Positions 2,267-54,441 of a stretch of 64,000 nucleotides of DNA are shown one piece after another (within the stretch, counting starts at the first letter, position 1; each line of letters starts with the position of its first letter). The stretch covers positions 23,008 to 87,007 of the forward strand of contig CAZTQY010000001.1 in NCBI GenBank assembly GCA_964616425.1. Reading direction: 5' to 3'. The position numbers and the translations under genes were made by a program. Under the pieces are notes generated by a model. The model ran no database searches, had not been told where the DNA came from, and saw only the letters and a list, made by a program, of their open reading frames with translations. The DNA is from an uncultured Candidatus Saccharibacteria bacterium. Lineage in GTDB: Bacteria > Patescibacteriota > Minisyncoccia > Phycocordibacterales > DATDWN01.

Positions 2267-3430
2267 TTATTTTGTTATTGCCTTTATAATACCGTCTTTA
2301 ACTGATACGTCCAGCTCCTCTCCACTTTTTACATCCTTTATACTTTTTACTATTTTACCACCAACTTTTACAATACTATATCCATATGCCAACTGTCTTT
2401 CAGGATTTGAGATATCTAGCATTTTTTTTGACTGAGTAATGAAATCCATACTATTTTCTAACATGGTAGAGAATGCCCTAACTATTTCAATACCAATGTT
2501 CGAAACTCGATCAGAAACTCTTTTTATACTACTTTCCATATGAACAATAGAATTTTCAACCGCAGACTGTTTTTCTTTTAGCACAGCTTGAAACTTTGAA
2601 AAAATTCTTTCTTCACCAAGTTTTACCAGAGACAATGCATCATTCCAAGTTGAGTTGAGTAGATTTGCAACAGCAGTTGGTGTTGAAACATTTCTATCAG
2701 AAACCATTGAGACCAAAGGTTCATCCTTATCGTGACCGATTCCAGTTAAAACAGGTACTGGGAAATCAGCTACAGCACGAACCAAAACTTCGTTATTAAA
2801 TGCCTGAAATGACTCCAGAGAACCACCCCCTCTCATTATCACAAGTACATCAATATCTTTGGTTTTAAGGGTATCTATGGCCCCCAGAAGGTCCTTTATA
2901 GCATCCACACCTTCCACTTTTGAATCAACAAAAAGTATCTCATAACCAAACTTACCTATGTTAGTTAAAAAGTCGTTTATTACCGCTCCGCTCTTTGAAG
3001 TTATAACCCCTACTTTATGCGGATACATAGGTATCTCTCTTTTTTTTGTAACAGCAAATAAACCCTCTTTTTCAAGTTTTAGTTTTAACTGATCATATGC
3101 CATTTTCAAAGCGCCTTCACCAACCAACTCAACAGACTCTATTTGCATTGTCAGACCTCCGTTTGGTTTATAAATACTTGGGTAAGCAGTTACTATCACC
3201 TCTAGGCCATCTTTCAAGGCCACTCCTGACAGAGTAAAATCCCTCTTCCACATAAAACACTTTAGAGTCGATTGGTCTTTTGTATCTTTTATATTGAAAT
3301 ATAGATACGAACGACCTTCATACATCTGAACTCCAGAAACTTCACCAATGATTCTCGCACCCTCTTGTTTTAAAGTAGAGTTTAACTTATCTAAATATAA
3401 ACTAACTGAAATAATATCTTTATCTTTCAT
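2267..3430 (-). CDS. xseA: Exodeoxyribonuclease VII large subunit
   Basis: N-terminal OB-fold region. Catalytic-domain motifs GGGSLESFQAFNNEVLVRAVADFPVPVLTGIGHDKD are characteristic of XseA. It overlaps xseB by 1 nt, an operon arrangement. Confidence 0.85.
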   Translation of the reverse strand: MKDKDIISVSLYLDKLNSTLKQEGARIIGEVSGVQMYEGRSYLYFNIKDTKDQSTLKCFMWKRDFTLSGVALKDGLEVIVTAYPSIYKPNGGLTMQIESVELVGEGALKMAYDQLKLKLEKEGLFAVTKKREIPMYPHKVGVITSKSGAVINDFLTNIGKFGYEILFVDSKVEGVDAIKDLLGAIDTLKTKDIDVLVIMRGGGSLESFQAFNNEVLVRAVADFPVPVLTGIGHDKDEPLVSMVSDRNVSTPTAVANLLNSTWNDALSLVKLGEERIFSKFQAVLKEKQSAVENSIVHMESSIKRVSDRVSNIGIEIVRAFSTMLENSMDFITQSKKMLDISNPERQLAYGYSIVKVGGKIVKSIKDVKSGEELDVSVKDGIIKAITK

Positions 3431-4034
3431 TTTTTCTCTTTATAGCCATTACATATTCGTATATTGATGGAGAAAGTGAAACCAATATAATCAAAATAAC
3501 CATATAGTGTAGATATTTTTCAACGCCAGGAATAGTTCTGCCCAAATAAAAACCAATCGTTGTTATGCCTATTGTCCAAAGCACCCCTCCGATAAGAGAA
3601 TCTCGATTAAATTTCTTAAATGGCATCTTTACTGCACCAGCAAATGTTGGAGAAAAAGATCTAACAATTGGAACAAAACGACCTATGATTATAGTTTTGT
3701 CACCGTATTTATCATAAAACTCTTTTGTGTATTCTAGATGCTTTTTTTTGAACCAATACCTGTCATTGCTTTTCAATATAAAGTCACGAAGTCTCTCTCC
3801 CATAAAGTAACTAAAATTGTAACCCAAAATACTAGCTACAAATAAACTAGTCAAAAGTAGTGGCATATTAAAATAACCCTGGGAAGCAAGAAAACCTGTC
3901 GTAAATAATAGAGAATCACCTGGAAGATAAAATGTCATCGGAAATGACTCGAGAAATATGATCAAAAATAAAATAAAATAAGCATAATAGCCAACATCCT
4001 TTATAAGGTTTATTAAATGTTCCATGAAGGACAT
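3420..4034 (-). CDS. DedA/SNARE-associated (VTT-domain) membrane protein
   Basis: Multi-TM protein with DedA-family motifs (FLESFPMTFYLPGDSLLFTTGFL, GRFVPIVRSFSPTFAGA). The track ORF extends to 4115, but a start at MSFMEHL (4034) is more plausible because the upstream part overlaps a 14-bp inverted repeat. Confidence 0.7.
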   Translation of the reverse strand: MSFMEHLINLIKDVGYYAYFILFLIIFLESFPMTFYLPGDSLLFTTGFLASQGYFNMPLLLTSLFVASILGYNFSYFMGERLRDFILKSNDRYWFKKKHLEYTKEFYDKYGDKTIIIGRFVPIVRSFSPTFAGAVKMPFKKFNRDSLIGGVLWTIGITTIGFYLGRTIPGVEKYLHYMVILIILVSLSPSIYEYVMAIKRKNER

Positions 4035-4060
4035 TGTAATAGAAATTTTACATAAAGGAA

Positions 4061-4108
4061 ACTCCGCACGTTTTGACGGAACGTGGAAGTCCCCAAAACG
4101 TGCGGAGT
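4061..4108. terminator. Perfect 14-bp inverted repeat (actccgcacgtttt / aaaacgtgcggagt) with a 20-nt loop. Likely terminator of the small GC-rich peptide gene and 5' UTR structure of the DedA gene
   Basis: Seen directly. It lies between the stop of the 4127-4257 gene and the DedA start. Confidence 0.5.
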
Positions 4109-4126
4109 GAACCAAACTGCGACCGA

Positions 4127-4257
4127 CTAGGCGTTGAGCATCATTGCGACTCCAATGATGACCAGGACGACGAGCAGGACGACCCAGAGCTTTCCTGAGT
4201 GTCGTTCGCTGGTCGAAGTCGTACCAGTCTCCACTGACGATCTTGAAATTGAGTTCA
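4127..4257 (-). CDS. Small GC-rich gene encoding a 43-aa peptide with a C-terminal transmembrane helix (toxin-like, tail-anchored). Function unknown
   Basis: Encodes MNSISRSSVETGTTSTSERHSGKLWVVLLVVLVIIGVAMMLNA. A strong SD (gggagga) sits 4 nt before the ATG. Uses GC-rich codons unlike the neighbours. The longer track ORF 4127-4330 has no RBS at its start. Confidence 0.4.
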
Positions 4258-4365
4258 TACCGTCCTCCCTATATAAAATACTAGACCTTTTGAAATCTAG
4301 AGTCAACAATAAAACCTTATGGTTTAACATAAGGCTTTATTGTGTTTAATATGTTTTTATGACAG

Positions 4366-5634
4366 TTACTCGATGAATGTAAGTGCTTTGCCTTTCTTTC
4401 CAGCTCGTCCTGTTCGGCCTATTCGGTGCACATAGTCCTCATATGTAGCTGGAATATCGAAGTTAATAACATGAGATACTCCAGAGATATCCAAACCTCT
4501 AGCAGCAACATCTGTCGCAACTAATACCTGAGCTTTATCATCTTTGAAAGTTTTAAGTGCTCTCTGTCGCGCTGACTGATTTTTATCACCATGAATAGAC
4601 TCAGCCTTGAAACCACGCGCATTTAACATTGTTGTTAGTTTTTCAACTCCATGCTTTGTTCTTCCGAAAATCAGAACTTTGCTGAACTCTGGCTGTACAA
4701 GCATTGTATGTAAAATATCAAGCTTATTGTCGCCTCTGTTTACTCTCACAACATCCTGATCAACATTTTTTGATGTATCTTGTGTTTTTACAGATATCAT
4801 TACTGGATTTTTCAAGAAATCTTTTATAAGTGCAGAAATCTCTGGAGAAAGAGTCGCAGAGAAAAACAGAGTATGTCTATCTTTTGGCATCATAGCCATC
4901 ATGAACTTCATATCGTTTATGAAACCCATGTCTAGCATTCTGTCAGCTTCATCCAAAACAACTGTTTTGAAATATGAGAGATTTAAAACTTTTCTTTCGA
5001 TAAGATCCTTTAGTCTTCCTGGCGTACCTATAACAAACTCGTTTCTATATCTTAGTTGTCGTATTTGTGAACCTATTGGTGCACCTCCAACACAAACAAC
5101 AGAGTACAATTGCAAGCCTTTTATAAAATCCTTTAGTTCATCCTCTATCTGTATTGCAAGTTCACGTGTAGGACACATGATGAGTATGTTTTCTGTTGGA
5201 TTTGAAAGCACTTTGTGAATAAGTGGTATAAGAAAAGCTGCAGTTTTACCTGTACCAGTGTTTGCAATACCAACAACATCCTCACCTTTTAGTATATGCG
5301 GAATAGCCCGATCTTGGATCGGAGATGGGTCAACATAACCTTTTGTTATGATGTTATTTTTTAATCTTTCATCTATAAGAAAATCTGAGAACTTGTGCTC
5401 AGGCACAAATTGCTCAACAGTTTCAGTTATAACTGCTTTGTTAACAAACTTTGATGGATGGATACTTTGTGAAGCACCTCGGCCTCTACCACCTCCACCT
5501 CTGTTTCCTCCACGTACTGGGAACCTTGAACGTCCTCCAGAAGTAGAACCGTAAGCGCTACGAGTAGGTCTTCCTGAAAAGGAAGGTTTCTTAAATGTCC
5601 GCGAAAGGACACCTTTTTGTATTTTTGATTGCAT
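4366..5634 (-). CDS. DEAD-box ATP-dependent RNA helicase with an N-terminal RGG-rich region
   Basis: Q-motif/Walker A NTGTGKTAAF, DEAD box VLDEADRMLDMGF, SAT, and HRIGRTGRAG motif VI. N-terminal GGRSRFPVRGGNRGGGGRGRG low-complexity segment. Confidence 0.9.
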   Translation of the reverse strand: MQSKIQKGVLSRTFKKPSFSGRPTRSAYGSTSGGRSRFPVRGGNRGGGGRGRGASQSIHPSKFVNKAVITETVEQFVPEHKFSDFLIDERLKNNIITKGYVDPSPIQDRAIPHILKGEDVVGIANTGTGKTAAFLIPLIHKVLSNPTENILIMCPTRELAIQIEDELKDFIKGLQLYSVVCVGGAPIGSQIRQLRYRNEFVIGTPGRLKDLIERKVLNLSYFKTVVLDEADRMLDMGFINDMKFMMAMMPKDRHTLFFSATLSPEISALIKDFLKNPVMISVKTQDTSKNVDQDVVRVNRGDNKLDILHTMLVQPEFSKVLIFGRTKHGVEKLTTMLNARGFKAESIHGDKNQSARQRALKTFKDDKAQVLVATDVAARGLDISGVSHVINFDIPATYEDYVHRIGRTGRAGKKGKALTFIE

Positions 5635-26678: not shown

Positions 26679-29600
26679 TTATTGAGCGTTTGGGTTCAAT
26701 GACCAAGGAACTAGTGGAGGTAACTCCAAAGATAGTTCTGGACATTCAAGCTGATTAATTTTCTTTACTGTTGATAGATATACAATACCTGTTGGACCTG
26801 TTAGACCCCATGGTTTTAGAATATCATCTCCATATTTTTCCTGGAACTTCTTAACTTGTACAAATGTTAGTGGTCCATAGAATCCAGTTACTGGAATGTT
26901 AGAACCTAGCCATTTGTTTAGGAAAGTCTGAAGTTTCTTTACTTGTTCAGAATTATTCTTTGAACTTCCAAGTTTGAAGTGTGAATTGATATAGATACCG
27001 CATGATTCACCCAAAACTTCACCCTGTGGAGCTCCATTACCAAGTACGAATCCAAAGTTAACTGGACCATTACCTCCTCCACCACCAGTTGTTCTGAATG
27101 TTGGAGTGTCATCTGTTGGCTCTTCCTCATCTATAACTACTGGGTTTGATGTTGAATAAGTTAGGTTATCAATAAGGAATCCTTTTCCTGTGTTTGCTGG
27201 ATGAGCTGTTCCTCTAGCCTGGAAGATTAGAGTCTTTACGATTCTTGGTGATTGTTCTGCTGATGACTCTGAATCGAATCTATAATAATTCTCCCAACTT
27301 TTTCCAGTGTGAACCAAAACACCATCAATGTAGATTTTTACGATATCGTTAGATGCTCCGTCAACAAAGTCCATTACAAACTTAATTTTGTGTGGGATAG
27401 ATCGATTTAGATTATCAGCAACTAGCACCTCATCAAAGCTTATTGGGCCTGTACCAGATACATCATCAAAGTAGACATCCAATCCACCTGCAGTATCTTC
27501 AAATCTTAGGTAGCTCATTCTTGAACCATCTCCTCGATCTGGTGAAACTGAAATATGTAGACCTGGTTGTTCCTGACATGGTTGAGTTGATGCAATATCA
27601 AACTGAGCCTCAAAGTGAGTTTGTCGAGTACCTGCTGAGAATGCGCCAGCTGTTGCAGAAGCCTCTCCAGCTCCATTTGCTACTCCTGGAGCAAACACCC
27701 AGTCTCCAAATGAACCACTTGTAGCTCCATCAGAGATTCTAAATGATTGTGAATCAAAGCTTGCATAACCATATGTGTTTGGCACAATAGCGAAGTCATA
27801 TGGGCCTGTTGCTGACCAACCATTTTGTCCATTGATTGCGCCAGTTGTATAACTCTGAGTAGACTCAAATCTAATAGCTCCACTGTTATCTGATGTGTCT
27901 GTATAAGTCGCAGGACATGATGGTGGTTCAACTGGTCCTGGACAAGGTTTGTTTACAACAATCACTGTTCTATCTGATGTTATATCTGTAAATACAGGTG
28001 CTGTTTCAGTCAACGTAGCTGAAAGTGCTGATGAAAGATCATTGCCTGATTTGTAACCAAGTAAGTAATACTTTCCAACTTCACAAGCTTCTGAGTTTGA
28101 AACAACCACTGCACCGTCTACTACTTCTGAAGTTGTGTAATCTGCTGGAGCTTCCATTGGAGCAGTATCGGCTGAATATTTTAGAGTTGCTCCTCCATGA
28201 TTATCTCCAAGCACATATGATCCTGATGATGATACACCACTATTCAAGTTGGCTGTTTGCCATGTTGCTGTCATTGGGAAAGCTGGAATCTCTGCATTGT
28301 CTGAAACCTGAGAAATTCCATCACCATTATCTAGATATTTGTATATATGTACCTTTAGTGTAGTTGCACCTTGTACCTCTCCACACTTATGGTTCCAAAC
28401 TATCATGTAACTCTCACCATCAATAGTGAAAACTGGAGGAGTAAGACTTTTAGTTGCATTTTGTGCCTCACTCAGACTAGATCCTGAAGTGTAACCTACA
28501 AGTTCATACTGTTTACCTTCCTGACAGCTTGCTCCAACTAGACTTGTATCCAAGTTTTCGTTTGCAGTATATGTCGCACCAGCTGGCATTTCAGAAGTTG
28601 ATGCCTCATAAGGCTCATCTCCATTTGTCCATCCTGAAGGACTTAGAGTAAATGGTGCATTATAAGTAGCAGTAAACATTGGGAATGATGCAGAAACTGC
28701 ATTTATAATGTTTGCCTGTTCACCATCAATATATTTGAAAATGTGAACATGACCATTTGTTGGTTCATGAGGAGTTTCTGGAGGAACACATCTTAAACTT
28801 ACACCATCAATATATCCACCATAGCTTGTATCTGTTCCAATATCATTGAATCCAATAACAGTTGATGTAGTCGTTGCTGTAAAGTTTCTAGTGTATGAAG
28901 TCCATACAGTATCTGAATTTGATGTTCCGTCTGCAGTTATAGATGAACCAAGAACTAATCCGCCTGCCTGAGCTTCTAGAGCGTTATCAGCAGAGTCTCG
29001 TCCTGGTCGTGGTGAATATTTGAACGTAAGAGCATAATTCATACCTGGAGTTGTAGAAATATTTTGAGAAATATTTACTGGGTGATAACCATCTAGTTCT
29101 GCGAACTGATCACCTAATCCTGGATCTGGGTTACCAGCAACGTGATTTTGGATTTCAAGTCCCAATACTCCACTTGTTAGTGGATTGAACCATGCTACCA
29201 ACCATTTAAGAGCTGGATTTGAATCTGGAACTACACCCCATGTACCTGAACCCATAGCTGGATCTTCAAAAGAACCATTTTGTATTAATTCTACATTTGC
29301 GTCACAGACTGGAAGTTCACTTTGGCAAAGTGGTGAGTATGGTGAAATCGCTAGTGACTTGTCTGTAAACTCAAATGAAAGTTCTGAGCTTACTGTATGT
29401 CTTTCTGCAAAGAATACATCCACGATATGAGTACCTGCAGTCATGCTGATTGAACCAGACTGAGTACTTGCTGCATGTATACCATGGTTATCAACCTGCA
29501 CTACTCCGTCAACCAATACCCAAGCATCATCATCAGATGAAAGCGTATAGGCATAGTTACCAGTTACAGGAACAATAACTTTTGCTGAAGAATGAACTCC

Positions 29601-53448: not shown

Positions 53449-54441
53449 GTGTCTACGACTGAAGGCGGCAACGCCCCGCTCGTCACGATACTCGTCCCCT
53501 GTTACCAGTACGGACGATATCTGAAAACTTGTCTGGATGGAATTTTCGCCCAGACGATAATCAACGAGATTTCATTTGAAATCATCGTCATCAACGACGG
53601 CTCAACAGATGAGACCGACGAGGTGATGTATGAATTCAATGATCCTCGGATTCGTTACATCCGTCTACCTGAAAACCAAGGCATCTGTAATGCGCTAGCA
53701 CAAGGCATTACACTGGCAAAAGGAAAGTACTTTGCCAGGATTGATGCTGACGACAGGTGGAAGCCACACTTTCTCGAGGAAGTACTACCGATCCTCGAGA
53801 AACACCCTGATGTTGGACTTGTGTACGGCGATGTAATACACATCGACAAACACAACAACGTCATCCAGGATCCGAGCACGATCTGCTCGATCATCCACCA
53901 CAACGGAAGAGACTTCAAAGGAGACGAATTCTTTTTCCAGCTTATGGGATGCAGTATTGGTACAGCTGGTGTGATTGGCAGAACTTCTGCCCTTCGTCCA
54001 GCAATACCTTTCCCAAGTAGTTTCACTTGGGGCTACCCATCTGACTGGTGGTTGCATATGGTGGTTCTAAGGGATCACCAGATGTACTACACCAGACGCG
54101 TCATCGGCGAGTACAGAATGCACGCCGAAAGCATGACGAGTCAGGGAAAAATTGTTTCTTCGTCCTACGAAGAAACAATGATCGGGGCTTTGGACATTCT
54201 CTTTAGCGAGGGAAGACGAGCGAGTGAACGTCGAAAGTCCTACGCGTACATGTGGACTAGTGTGGGTAACATACATTTCGAAAGAAACTATGGAGCCTGC
54301 GCAAGAAGAGCCTACATGAAAGCTGTGATGTACCGACCGGATTACATTTTCCGGAAGTCCATCGTCCGGCACTTTCTGTCGAGTCTTCTGCCAAGGCCTA
54401 TGTACGAGGTAATAAAGAAAGGGGTAAAGAAAATGTTCTGA
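53449..54441 (+). CDS. Family 2 glycosyltransferase; GC-rich, putative horizontally acquired
   Basis: ILVPCYQYGRYLKTCLDGIFAQT, INDGSTDETDEV and RIDADD are GT2 DxD motifs. GTG start preceded by aaaggagg. GC content clearly above the neighbours. Confidence 0.8.
   Translation: MSTTEGGNAPLVTILVPCYQYGRYLKTCLDGIFAQTIINEISFEIIVINDGSTDETDEVMYEFNDPRIRYIRLPENQGICNALAQGITLAKGKYFARIDADDRWKPHFLEEVLPILEKHPDVGLVYGDVIHIDKHNNVIQDPSTICSIIHHNGRDFKGDEFFFQLMGCSIGTAGVIGRTSALRPAIPFPSSFTWGYPSDWWLHMVVLRDHQMYYTRRVIGEYRMHAESMTSQGKIVSSSYEETMIGALDILFSEGRRASERRKSYAYMWTSVGNIHFERNYGACARRAYMKAVMYRPDYIFRKSIVRHFLSSLLPRPMYEVIKKGVKKMF

Follow-up and report, generated by a model that had tools for sequence, protein, structure and literature searches.

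What is encoded in the interval that separates the genes for a DEAD-box helicase and a DedA protein? A 43-codon open reading frame (ORF) lies there on the minus strand of the 64-kb stretch of DNA analysed here (the window), and a sequence-only reading had likened its product to a type I toxin. In this study, we analysed the gene structure, coding status, architecture and conservation of this locus in silico. The evidence favours a genuine monocistronic small-protein gene, and its product is most likely a small membrane accessory or modulator protein rather than a self-poisoning toxin, a reading to which we assign a probability of roughly 60%.

The small ORF and its start signal

The small ORF comprises 43 codons on the minus strand, from an ATG at 4258..4256 to a TAG stop codon at 4129..4127, and direct translation yields MNSISRSSVETGTTSTSERHSGKLWVVLLVVLVIIGVAMMLNA. 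This is identical to the peptide given by the sequence-only reading, whose end coordinate (4257) was short by one base. The ORF is flanked by the DEAD-box helicase gene (4366-5634) upstream and the DedA gene (CDS 4025..3420) downstream, within the conserved gene order DoxX, helicase, small ORF, DedA, XseA and XseB. A 12-nt tandem duplication (direct repeat D2, 4157..4180, minus strand, 83% identity) is present in the part that codes for the transmembrane (TM) segment. Its copies read GATGACCAGGAC and GACGAGCAGGAC on the plus strand and VLLV/VLVI on the coding strand.

The strong Shine-Dalgarno (SD) sequence claimed earlier can be read directly from the DNA as GGGAGGA at 4263..4269 (minus strand), 4 nt 5' of the ATG. 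GGAGG is found 5-7 nt ahead of the start codon in all seven lineages that carry the gene, and in two of them (L180 and L181) it is duplicated along with the start codon. Any SD-like motif was detected in 1-2 of the 43 long ORFs of the window, which makes the SD of the small ORF exceptional, and no other ORF of 25-90 codons in the 64-kb window has both a 5-mer SD and a hydrophobic segment. In about half of Parcubacteria, 16S rRNA has no anti-SD motif (PMC9297842). Since, in addition, the genome has practically no SD sites, a role of GGGAGGA in ribosome binding is uncertain here.

Coding status and composition

In every pair of lineages, protein similarity was best in the annotated frame (52 vs ≤35, 20 vs ≤7 and 36 vs ≤21), and the dN/dS ratio of the small ORF was 0.35-0.47. 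At the level of sequence, both results support the small ORF as a genuine small coding gene. Its dS was 0.74, vs 1.15 for the helicase gene. The first nine codons are 63-100% identical between lineages, with most of the changes there being synonymous, and versions of 50 aa had been called independently by public gene callers. The small protein is 27-66% identical between lineages, vs 84-95% for the flanking proteins. Thus, next to conserved neighbours, the constraint on the protein is weak.

The GC-richness pointed out by the sequence-only reading is pronounced. GC content is 52-57% across 4050-4250 vs 37% for the window, and GC3 of the small ORF is 0.65, whereas four neighbour genes have 0.26-0.27 and the 43 long ORFs have 0.29 ± 0.10. 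GC3 is high in all lineages (0.59-0.74). An IS110-family transposase makes up the only other large GC-rich island of the window. A plain small-gene model does not account for two features of the locus, namely the SD in an otherwise leaderless, SD-less genome and the GC-rich codon usage that persists across lineages.

Peptide architecture

A polar N-terminus followed by a single C-terminal TM helix had been proposed, and hydropathy and charge analysis as well as the AlphaFold2 helix agree with this. Codons 1-23 (4190..4258, minus strand) encode the polar, Ser/Thr-rich N-terminal part MNSISRSSVETGTTSTSERHSGK, which has an S+T fraction of 0.48 and a net charge of +1. It is predicted to be disordered and cytoplasmic, and residues 1-15 are without secondary structure in the AlphaFold2 model (pLDDT about 56). 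Codons 24-43 (4130..4189, minus strand) encode the TM helix LWVVLLVVLVIIGVAMMLNA, which runs to the C-terminus (Kyte-Doolittle mean of 2.84 for residues 24-42). In the AlphaFold2 model, the helix comprises residues 16-42 with a pLDDT of 85-96.

This architecture recurs in all seven versions, with an N-terminal part of 23-31 aa, a TM segment ending 0-3 residues from the C-terminus and an invariant W25. The tail of 0-3 residues after the TM segment has a net charge of 0 in six versions and of +1 in L020, and the basic residues are located on the N-terminal side of the helix. Because of these basic residues before the helix, the N-terminus is expected to reside in the cytoplasm. At the end of translation the helix would still be in the ribosome tunnel. 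Therefore, insertion would have to be post-translational, as for a tail-anchored protein.

Predicted promoter and boundaries of the transcription unit

The promoter scan identified a -35 box (TTGACT, 4301..4306) and a -10 box (TAGTAT, 4278..4283) of the small gene's own promoter on the minus strand. With its 17-nt spacer, this promoter has 9 of 12 matches, and TTGAC[TG]-16/17-TA[GA]NAT is present at the equivalent site in all seven lineages. If about 7 nt separate the -10 box from the start site, as is usual, transcription would begin near 4270-4274, giving a leader of about 12-16 nt. The upstream limit of the module is the terminator hairpin of the helicase gene (4306..4343, minus strand; inverted repeat I2, 16-nt arms, 94% complementary), which is AT-rich and followed by a T-run. 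Its 3' arm adjoins the -35 box of the small gene, and relatives have equivalent hairpins after the helicase stop codon.

On the other side, a -10 box that can be read from the sequence (TACAAT, 4033..4038, minus strand) ends 7 nt before the DedA ATG. TG-n-TACAAT or TAGAAT is found 7 nt ahead of the DedA ATG in nearly all related loci, and, over the whole window, -10-like boxes are enriched in a peak whose boxes end 6 nt ahead of start codons. Since DedA has its own -10 box so close to its ATG, it would form a separate leaderless transcription unit, and the box would mark the downstream boundary of the module. The same box, together with the lack of an SD in front of DedA, led us to reject the small ORF as an attenuator or leader peptide for DedA.

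The downstream hairpin

A 20-bp GC-rich hairpin with the hexaloop UUCCAC follows the stop codon (4061..4108, minus strand). A perfect 14-bp inverted repeat with a 20-nt loop had been described here; the repeat is indeed perfect, but its arms are 15 nt long (4061-4075 and 4094-4108) and 18 nt apart. As RNA, it forms a 20-bp interrupted stem with the hexaloop (-31.1 kcal/mol, z = -6.9), and the equivalent hairpins of relatives have -25 to -32 kcal/mol. The T-rich tail TTCCTTT lies 3' of the hairpin (4054..4060), and the terminator scan picked it up on the minus strand alone. Including the last stem base, the tail is UUUCCUUU, and across lineages it is UUUCCUUU, UUUCCCUUU, UUUCCAUUU or UUUCUCUUU.

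No other segment of the module is conserved as well as the hairpin, which has 71-90% nucleotide identity between lineages vs 51-76% in the ORF body. In the hairpin alignment, 94.2% of the cells are paired vs 28-49% with the partners slid, and three pairs are altered on both sides, i.e., in a compensatory manner. The covariation score of 0.189 (vs 0.119 in shuffles) was reached by none of 500 shuffles, which is modest evidence with eight sequences. Conservation and compensatory changes suggest that the hairpin most likely terminates the small mRNA and stabilises its 3' end, in line with the terminator option raised before. It shares with intrinsic terminators a GC-rich stem-loop, a T-rich tail behind it on the strand of the preceding gene and a structure kept by compensatory changes. 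It differs from them in its unusually long stem (20 bp, -31 kcal/mol), in a U-tract that is broken by CC in every lineage and in a loop and 3' arm whose sequences are conserved well past pairing needs. A covariance model found the hairpin once per locus, at the small-gene site only, in about 240 kb of related sequence, and the window has no second copy; thus, a REP- or MITE-like repeated element was rejected.

Distribution

Relatives of the DedA protein place the window among Parcubacteria/Zambryskibacteria-like genomes of the candidate phyla radiation (CPR). The module was found at the same syntenic site in related genomes in seven distinct versions (the window, L178/179, L004/L002/L109, L175-177, L180, L181 and L020), each with the promoter, the GGAGG start signal, an ORF of 43-53 aa with polar N-terminal part and C-terminal TM segment, and the hairpin. 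It is missing in the close relatives L001 and L182-185 and is therefore dispensable. Relatives are present in samples such as SRR25018318, SRR14751627, ERZ2855122 and GCA_965661755.1.

Database searches gave little beyond these genomes. The single 43-aa peptide retrieved no homologue in a word-indexed search, and neither this peptide nor the DedA and helicase proteins had an exact match. The versions of the window and L020 are absent from 15 billion predicted proteins, having been missed by annotation, and among 1.84 billion cluster representatives there were no relatives outside the own subclade. Searches of phage and plasmid DNA gave no relevant match, and a scan of viral contigs with the hairpin pattern gave 0 matches. 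A metagenome DNA scan with CGTGYGGAGTTTCYYTT was unspecific and yielded mostly chance matches, with one real module (L109) among the 120 matches listed. Our verdict on this distribution is that the small gene appears to represent a new, narrowly distributed family of small membrane proteins, a fast-evolving orphan family of one Parcubacteria subclade.

Comparison with type I toxins

Membrane-acting type I toxins are hydrophobic peptides of <60 aa with a putative alpha-helical TM segment and with cationic residues generally in the C-terminal domain; most of them combine an N-terminal TM segment with a cationic C-terminus (PMC8309996). With 43 aa and a single predicted TM helix, the hydrophobic small peptide resembles Hok, TisB, Fst, Ibs, ShoB and SprA1 (PMC8309996). 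Like their genes, the small gene is an independent intergenic unit with a structured mRNA, here with a strong hairpin, and it evolves fast and is patchy among close relatives. It could therefore be proposed that the locus is a type I toxin-antitoxin-like module, in which a membrane-damaging peptide is encoded by a GC-rich structured mRNA that either an RNA antitoxin or intramolecular folding keeps silent. We consider this unlikely.

Silencing by the fold of the mRNA was suggested by the unusually stable predicted transcript (-89.2 kcal/mol, z = -4.9), but much of this z-score is due to the terminator hairpin alone. Furthermore, GGAGG is paired with the 3' tail in three of five MFE folds, yet such pairing of the two ends, which would sequester the SD, does not exceed the shuffled expectation. 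The pairing probabilities of the SD were 0.91, 0.72 and 0.91 (window, L004 and L020) vs 0.80, 0.87 and 0.89 after downstream shuffling, and 27-82% of the shuffles reached the observed values. The extra 5' segment of L180 and L181 was also considered as a riboswitch-like leader and rejected, as it has no significant structure (z about -0.3) and no Rfam match. With respect to an RNA antitoxin, a consensus scan, which is blind to atypical promoters and trans-encoded RNA, detected no sigma-70-like antisense promoter over the mRNA in the window or the six other lineages. This argues against both the plus-strand antisense small RNA and the antisense-RNA target region that the sequence-only reading had envisaged.

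The peptide itself also departs from the toxins. It has a long polar part before the TM segment, which lies at the extreme C-terminus, and no cationic C-terminal tail, unlike most membrane type I toxins (PMC8309996). Searches of Pfam, NCBIfam, PADLOC and PHROGs for toxin families (Hok, Fst/Ldr, Ibs, TxpA/BsrG and others) returned only sub-threshold matches that stem from the generic TM segment. In ShoB, the hydrophobic stretch is likewise located toward the C-terminal end. The small gene is chromosomal and single-copy in the window, with fixed synteny and without a mobile element, and for a real toxin a near-consensus promoter and a strong SD without visible control would be lethal. A toxin is thus not supported: size and TM segment agree with the class, but the searches for an antisense promoter, a sequestered SD, a cationic C-terminus and a toxin family were all negative.

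A possible functional RNA at the 3' end

The conservation of the hairpin raises the question whether the RNA rather than the peptide is the functional product. In such an RNA-centred element, the core would be the 3' hairpin, serving as a 3'-end-derived sRNA, as an RNA that binds a protein or as a substrate of RNase III; alternatively, the whole GC-rich transcript would have a dual function. The peptide would be secondary or would need only to be translated. Hairpin and tail are conserved as well as or better than neighbouring coding DNA, while the ORF body is near background. Six of the seven lineages have a near-invariant 3' arm and apical loop (CCACGTYCCGTCAARACGTGCGGAGTTTCC), while wobbles are tolerated in the 5' arm, and the stem is far stronger than ordinary terminators of the genome such as that of the helicase gene. 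Moreover, a leaderless, SD-less genome leaves room for GGGAGG as an RNA-structure element, as many Parcubacteria are without anti-SD (PMC9297842). The high GC3 in all lineages and a dS below that of the helicase gene also fit this interpretation.

On the other hand, protein similarity is frame-specific, and the open frame has been kept in seven lineages despite near-saturated divergence. The joint duplication of GGAGG and start codon in L180 and L181 likewise speaks for translation. Rfam 15 gave no match at gathering thresholds and, up to E = 10, only meaningless miRNA-hairpin matches and no family; the L180 version had none either. Outside the hairpin, no conserved structure is detectable, since the ORF body cannot be aligned, and the hairpin occurs nowhere else in the related sequence searched. 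Taken together, we regard the RNA-centred interpretation as rather improbable. A further, quite speculative conclusion would be that the small gene is the sole SD-dependent message of the region, a GC-rich, tightly folded mini-mRNA whose output is set by the availability of the 16S anti-SD or by unfolding of the RNA. Its 3' hairpin might be a functional RNA, and the locus would then be a CPR-specific toxin-like or regulatory small-protein/RNA module without antisense RNA; this, too, seems improbable to us.

A possible relic and alternative frames

Could the ORF be a foreign or decaying leftover without function, either a horizontally acquired GC-rich fragment or a C-terminal anchor left stranded when a surface-protein gene was lost? 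Its GC content resembles that of foreign DNA, as the window's one further large GC-rich island is a transposase, and several close relatives are without the module. A similar '...ETGKAWVWVLGV...' anchor forms the end of a larger surface protein encoded just 5' of DedA in L005 and L010. Furthermore, the GVDTG-CTERM sorting domain (NCBIfam NF058571) gave a match of 15.4 bits (E = 0.017), which is well below the cut-off of 29 bits, and the small protein shares with C-terminal sorting signals (NF058571, LPXTG/PEP-CTERM-like anchors) a short polar motif (VETG), a Ser/Thr-rich spacer and an extreme C-terminal TM segment. However, conservation of the VETG motif does not extend to the six relatives, P0001, P0002 and L020 gave no match to GVDTG-CTERM, there is no basic tail after the TM segment, and the small protein has no passenger domain, so that the whole protein would be the 'signal'. 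The small protein is not significantly similar to the C-terminal ends of the surface proteins in L005 and L010 (E about 0.6-0.9), and on this ground a relic of a sorting signal was rejected. Moreover, promoter, SD, start codon, open frame, TM segment and terminator have been kept in seven lineages near synonymous saturation (helicase dS 1.15), and dN/dS of the small ORF is <1. A functionless leftover is thus very unlikely. A variable region followed by a conserved hairpin is also reminiscent of the target of a diversity-generating retroelement (DGR), but this idea was rejected, as a second (template) copy is missing from the 64-kb window and a TM peptide is not a known DGR target fold.

Finally, it is extremely improbable that the real gene is the plus-strand ORF at 4134-4349 (71 aa, TTG start), named earlier as the refuting case, or a 67-aa minus-strand ORF from 4330: both exist mechanically, but antisense frames score ≤22 in protein similarity vs 20-52 for the annotated frame, and are interrupted by stops in several lineages, the plus-strand ORF is not conserved as protein, has no Pfam match and would cross the promoter of the small gene and the helicase terminator, and the 67-aa ORF begins within that terminator, 5' of the conserved promoter, and is not the form called in relatives (50 aa).

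Proposed model and significance

Several small single-pass membrane proteins modulate larger ones, among them AcrZ, MgtS, KdpF, CydX and the tail-anchored Prli42 of Listeria. The small protein resembles this class in its size (30-50 residues) with one TM helix, in a poorly conserved sequence with conserved architecture, in the vicinity of its gene to that of a membrane protein (here DedA) and in having been missed by annotation. In contrast to this class, the small gene would be transcribed apart from DedA, from its own promoter and with a strong terminator, its GC3 is twice that of the genome, and it is missing in some relatives that keep DedA. In the L004/L175 pair, it is DedA that has been replaced.

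In our preferred model of a small membrane accessory protein, the sigma-70-type promoter TTGACT-17-TAGTAT would drive a transcript of about 215 nt, whose very short leader bears GGGAGGA as a strong putative ribosome-binding site. The product would be a protein of 43 residues, in which a disordered, slightly basic, Ser/Thr-rich part of 23 residues is followed by one TM helix that extends to the C-terminus. The 20-bp GC-rich hairpin and its T-rich tail would end transcription and protect the 3' end, and the hairpin would insulate this unit from DedA, a leaderless gene that lies 30 nt downstream. Potentially, the small protein acts together with the DedA membrane protein, which is equally variable and to which it is linked by adjacency of the genes.

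As it stands, the small gene is an orphan gene of modest general interest. If its product were toxic, RNA-controlled toxin systems would extend to CPR bacteria. Small membrane proteins are badly under-annotated, and in the CPR almost nothing is known about them. The small gene is a clean and comparatively well-supported example, as it comprises a complete unit from promoter to terminator with seven natural variants. As a lone SD-led gene with GC-rich codons in a leaderless, SD-free stretch, it may also provide a handle on the use of SD and anti-SD in these Parcubacteria and on selection for structured mini-mRNAs.

A small, putatively SD-led gene between the helicase and DedA genes

On the minus strand of the window, 4127-4258 reads ATG...TAG, and its translation matches the 43-residue peptide put forward by the sequence-only reading, whose end coordinate was one base short (the ATG occupies 4258-4256). 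The strong Shine-Dalgarno (SD) sequence noted there is GGGAGGA at 4269-4263, 4 nt 5' of the ATG, and the stretch is indeed GC-rich (52-57% GC, versus 37% for the window). A DEAD-box helicase gene (4366-5634, minus) lies upstream and a DedA/VTT-domain membrane-protein gene (CDS 4025-3420, minus) downstream, with the ExoVII large and small subunit genes farther downstream and a DoxX gene farther upstream. The DedA relatives found among species-representative genomes belong to MAGs of Parcubacteria, Zambryskibacteria and Paceibacterota, and the window therefore comes from a CPR bacterium. One tRNA gene is present in the window.

The peptide alone found no match by word search or exact look-up, and no Rfam family matched the small-gene stretch, even at E = 10. 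Syntenic loci of relatives carry the same module of promoter, SD, ORF and hairpin. Their peptides are P0001 (50 aa; L004, L002 and L109), P0002 (L175-177), P0003 (L178 and L179), one of 46 aa (L020), and peptides of 47-53 aa with an in-frame N-terminal extension (L180 and L181). When 1.84 billion cluster representatives were searched with a profile, only P0001 and P0003 were recovered; therefore, the family is confined to the subclade of the window. The module is missing from L001, the locus with the closest DedA (82% identity), from L003 and L182-185, and from the more distant L186-189.

In L182 (660-897), L183 (249-486) and L185 (1-83), a different insert of ~190 nt, flanked by a 17-nt inverted repeat (CTATTTCGTGAGACA...TGTCTCACGAAATAG), replaces the module in the helicase-DedA spacer. 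The more distant L006 (~3700-3900) and L008 (~3730-3870) have other small GC-rich single-TM ORFs just 5' of DedA on the opposite strand, with the TM N-terminal and the C-terminus charged in translations read by eye. Small membrane-peptide genes seem, from these loci, to be recurrent at the site upstream of DedA. The DoxX-DedA spacers of L186 (847-1201) and L188 (841-1201) are ~355 nt long, contain no called gene and have conserved blocks in common (e.g., GTGTCTTTGAT...CGAGACA); they may represent a non-coding RNA.

Coding status and shared anatomy

In every lineage pair the protein-level alignment score was highest in the annotated frame (52 vs ≤35, 20 vs ≤7, 36 vs ≤21), while the antisense frames scored low and contained stops in several lineages. 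Differences in the conserved first nine codons are mostly synonymous. The dN/dS of the small ORF was 0.35-0.47, compared to 0.07 for the helicase gene in the same lineage pair, and the frame is open in seven lineages despite near-saturated synonymous sites in the helicase (dS 1.15). Together with a GGAGG and start codon that were duplicated as a unit in L180 (1142-1395) and L181 (1140-1384), these data lead us to conclude that the small ORF is translated and evolves under weak purifying selection. Two other candidates for the real gene found no support: the plus-strand ORF 4134-4349, as antisense frames score poorly and carry stops in several lineages, and a 67-aa extension from 4330. Between the duplicated starts of L180 and L181 lie 25-28 conserved in-frame codons (MLYMRNTGNRHCVA.T...), giving possible forms of 75-78 aa; neither significant RNA structure nor an Rfam match was detected in this stretch.

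All seven versions possess a sigma-70-like promoter (TTGAC[TG]-16/17-TA[GA]NAT) immediately past the helicase terminator, and a leader of ~12-16 nt holding little besides a GGAGG 5-7 nt ahead of the start codon. The N-terminal part of the protein is polar and Ser/Thr-rich (23-31 residues, net charge 0 to +3), followed by a hydrophobic helix of 19-22 residues that ends 0-3 residues short of the C-terminus; R6 and W25 are invariant. AlphaFold2 predicted, for four sequences, a disordered N-terminus and a single helix (residues 16-42, pLDDT 85-96). A 12-nt tandem duplication in the TM-coding part (4157-4180; VLLV/VLVI) suggests that the helix may have grown by slippage. Between lineages, the small protein is 27-66% identical, compared to 84-95% for the flanking helicase and XseA proteins and 63-91% for DedA. 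At the DNA level, identity is 71-90% for hairpin and tail, 60-80% for promoter and SD, and 51-76% for the ORF body, where deeper pairs approach background.

A probable SD exception in a mostly leaderless genome

An SD, even as a 4-mer within 20 nt of the start, precedes only 1-2 of the 43 long ORFs of the window. A -10-like box ends 4-12 nt ahead of the ATG in 16 of these 43, peaking sharply at 6 nt, which together with the near-absence of SD sequences indicates widespread leaderless mRNAs. The genome appears to run mainly on such messages, and the small gene is predicted to be the sole clearly SD-led one in the 64 kb. Across the seven versions, the -10 box of DedA (TG-n-TACAAT) lies 20-40 nt beyond the hairpin and 7 nt ahead of the DedA ATG (window 4023-4038, minus), and this layout is repeated in nearly all related loci. 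In a published survey, the anti-SD motif was found in only 48% of Parcubacteria 16S genes (PMC9297842); the 3' end of the organism's own 16S lies outside the window. That the GGAGG-N5-7-start arrangement is conserved, and was also duplicated in L180 and L181, argues that this GGAGG probably works as an SD.

GC-rich codons

GC3 of the small ORF is 0.65, versus 0.26-0.27 in four neighbouring genes and 0.29 +/- 0.10 in the 43 long ORFs, and it lies at 0.59-0.74 in all lineages, whose genomes have 36-44% GC. A foreign origin is possible, because the other large GC-rich island (33076-34573; 1.5 kb, 55% GC against 37% for the window, GC3 ~0.65) encodes on the minus strand a 431-aa ORF (33192-34487) matching the IS110/IS116/IS902 transposase family and was probably acquired horizontally as an insertion sequence. 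The bias persists across lineages, and dS is below that of the helicase gene; both suggest that the RNA is instead under selection to be stable or structured. A family-2 glycosyltransferase ORF (53626-54441), located in a second GC-rich stretch (53.4-54.5 kb), has a GC3 of 0.54, roughly double the value typical of the genome. The window also harbors a full-length c-di-GMP-II riboswitch aptamer (31155-31238, minus; 61.5 bits) just upstream of a 1473-aa ORF (26679-31100, minus) in this CPR genome.

The hairpin and the type I toxin reading

A perfect inverted repeat with 14-bp arms and a 20-nt loop had been described downstream of the ORF; the repeat is perfect, and its arms measure 15 nt (4061-4075 and 4094-4108), separated by 18 nt. 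In the minus-strand RNA the repeat forms an interrupted 20-bp stem capped by a hexaloop (-31.1 kcal/mol, z = -6.9), a T-rich tail follows 3', and the terminator scan marked the minus strand only. In all seven versions the hairpin begins 15-25 nt past the stop codon and has a UUUC(C/U)NUUU tail. Over eight sequences, the hairpin is paired at 94% of cells (28-49% with partners slid) and three pairs are altered on both sides; the 3' arm and loop are nearly invariant in six of the seven lineages. Since DNA identity is also 71-90%, comparative analysis indicates that the hairpin is more constrained than a plain terminator would need, and this excess is the chief argument in favour of a putative RNA-level function. 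A covariance model detected the hairpin once at each locus and nowhere else in the ~240 kb scanned.

Judged by criteria for membrane type I toxins (PMC8309996), the small size and the single predicted TM helix proposed as toxin-like are both present. In contrast to such toxins, no sigma-70-like opposite-strand promoter yielding an overlapping RNA was detected in any of the seven lineages, and the protein has no cationic C-terminus and no match to a known toxin family in Pfam, NCBIfam, PADLOC or PHROGs. Folding of the entire transcript is very stable (z = -4.9), and some MFE folds pair GGAGG with the 3' tail; the pairing probability of GGAGG (0.72-0.91), however, is no higher than with shuffled downstream sequence (0.80-0.89). 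Furthermore, the gene is single-copy in the 64-kb window, in fixed synteny, and the module matched nothing in phage, plasmid or viral-contig collections. Therefore, we consider a type I toxin unlikely.

Proposed role of the small protein

The small gene is probably an independent, well-expressed mini-gene. Its promoter would produce a short leader holding the SD only, and translation would yield the 43-aa protein. In tail-anchored proteins, translation ends before the TM helix has left the exit tunnel, and insertion is hence post-translational. As this would also apply to the sole TM helix here, we infer post-translational insertion as a tail-anchored protein, with an N-in topology expected from the positive charges ahead of the helix. 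The strong hairpin would end transcription, protect the 3' end and insulate the gene from the leaderless DedA promoter. Most likely, the protein acts as a membrane accessory or modulator. DedA is the obvious candidate partner on grounds of adjacency, being co-oriented and unusually variable; relatives that lack the small gene nonetheless retain DedA. A comparison of the near-identical strains of L004 and L175 gives 100% identity at the helicase 3' end, 90-92% in the small-ORF region and only 55-73% for the DNA of DedA. For DedA (L004 3998-4690, L175 5248-5860) the protein identity is 65%, the XseA genes are 93-97% identical, and the breakpoints lie at the gene ends. In this clade, DedA resembles a variable cassette that undergoes recombination.

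In summary, the small gene represents an orphan family of small membrane proteins that has gone unannotated in CPR bacteria. The gene itself is no surprise to the specialist; mildly surprising, and testable, are the apparent SD-led start in an otherwise leaderless genome, the persistently GC-rich codons and the over-conserved hairpin.
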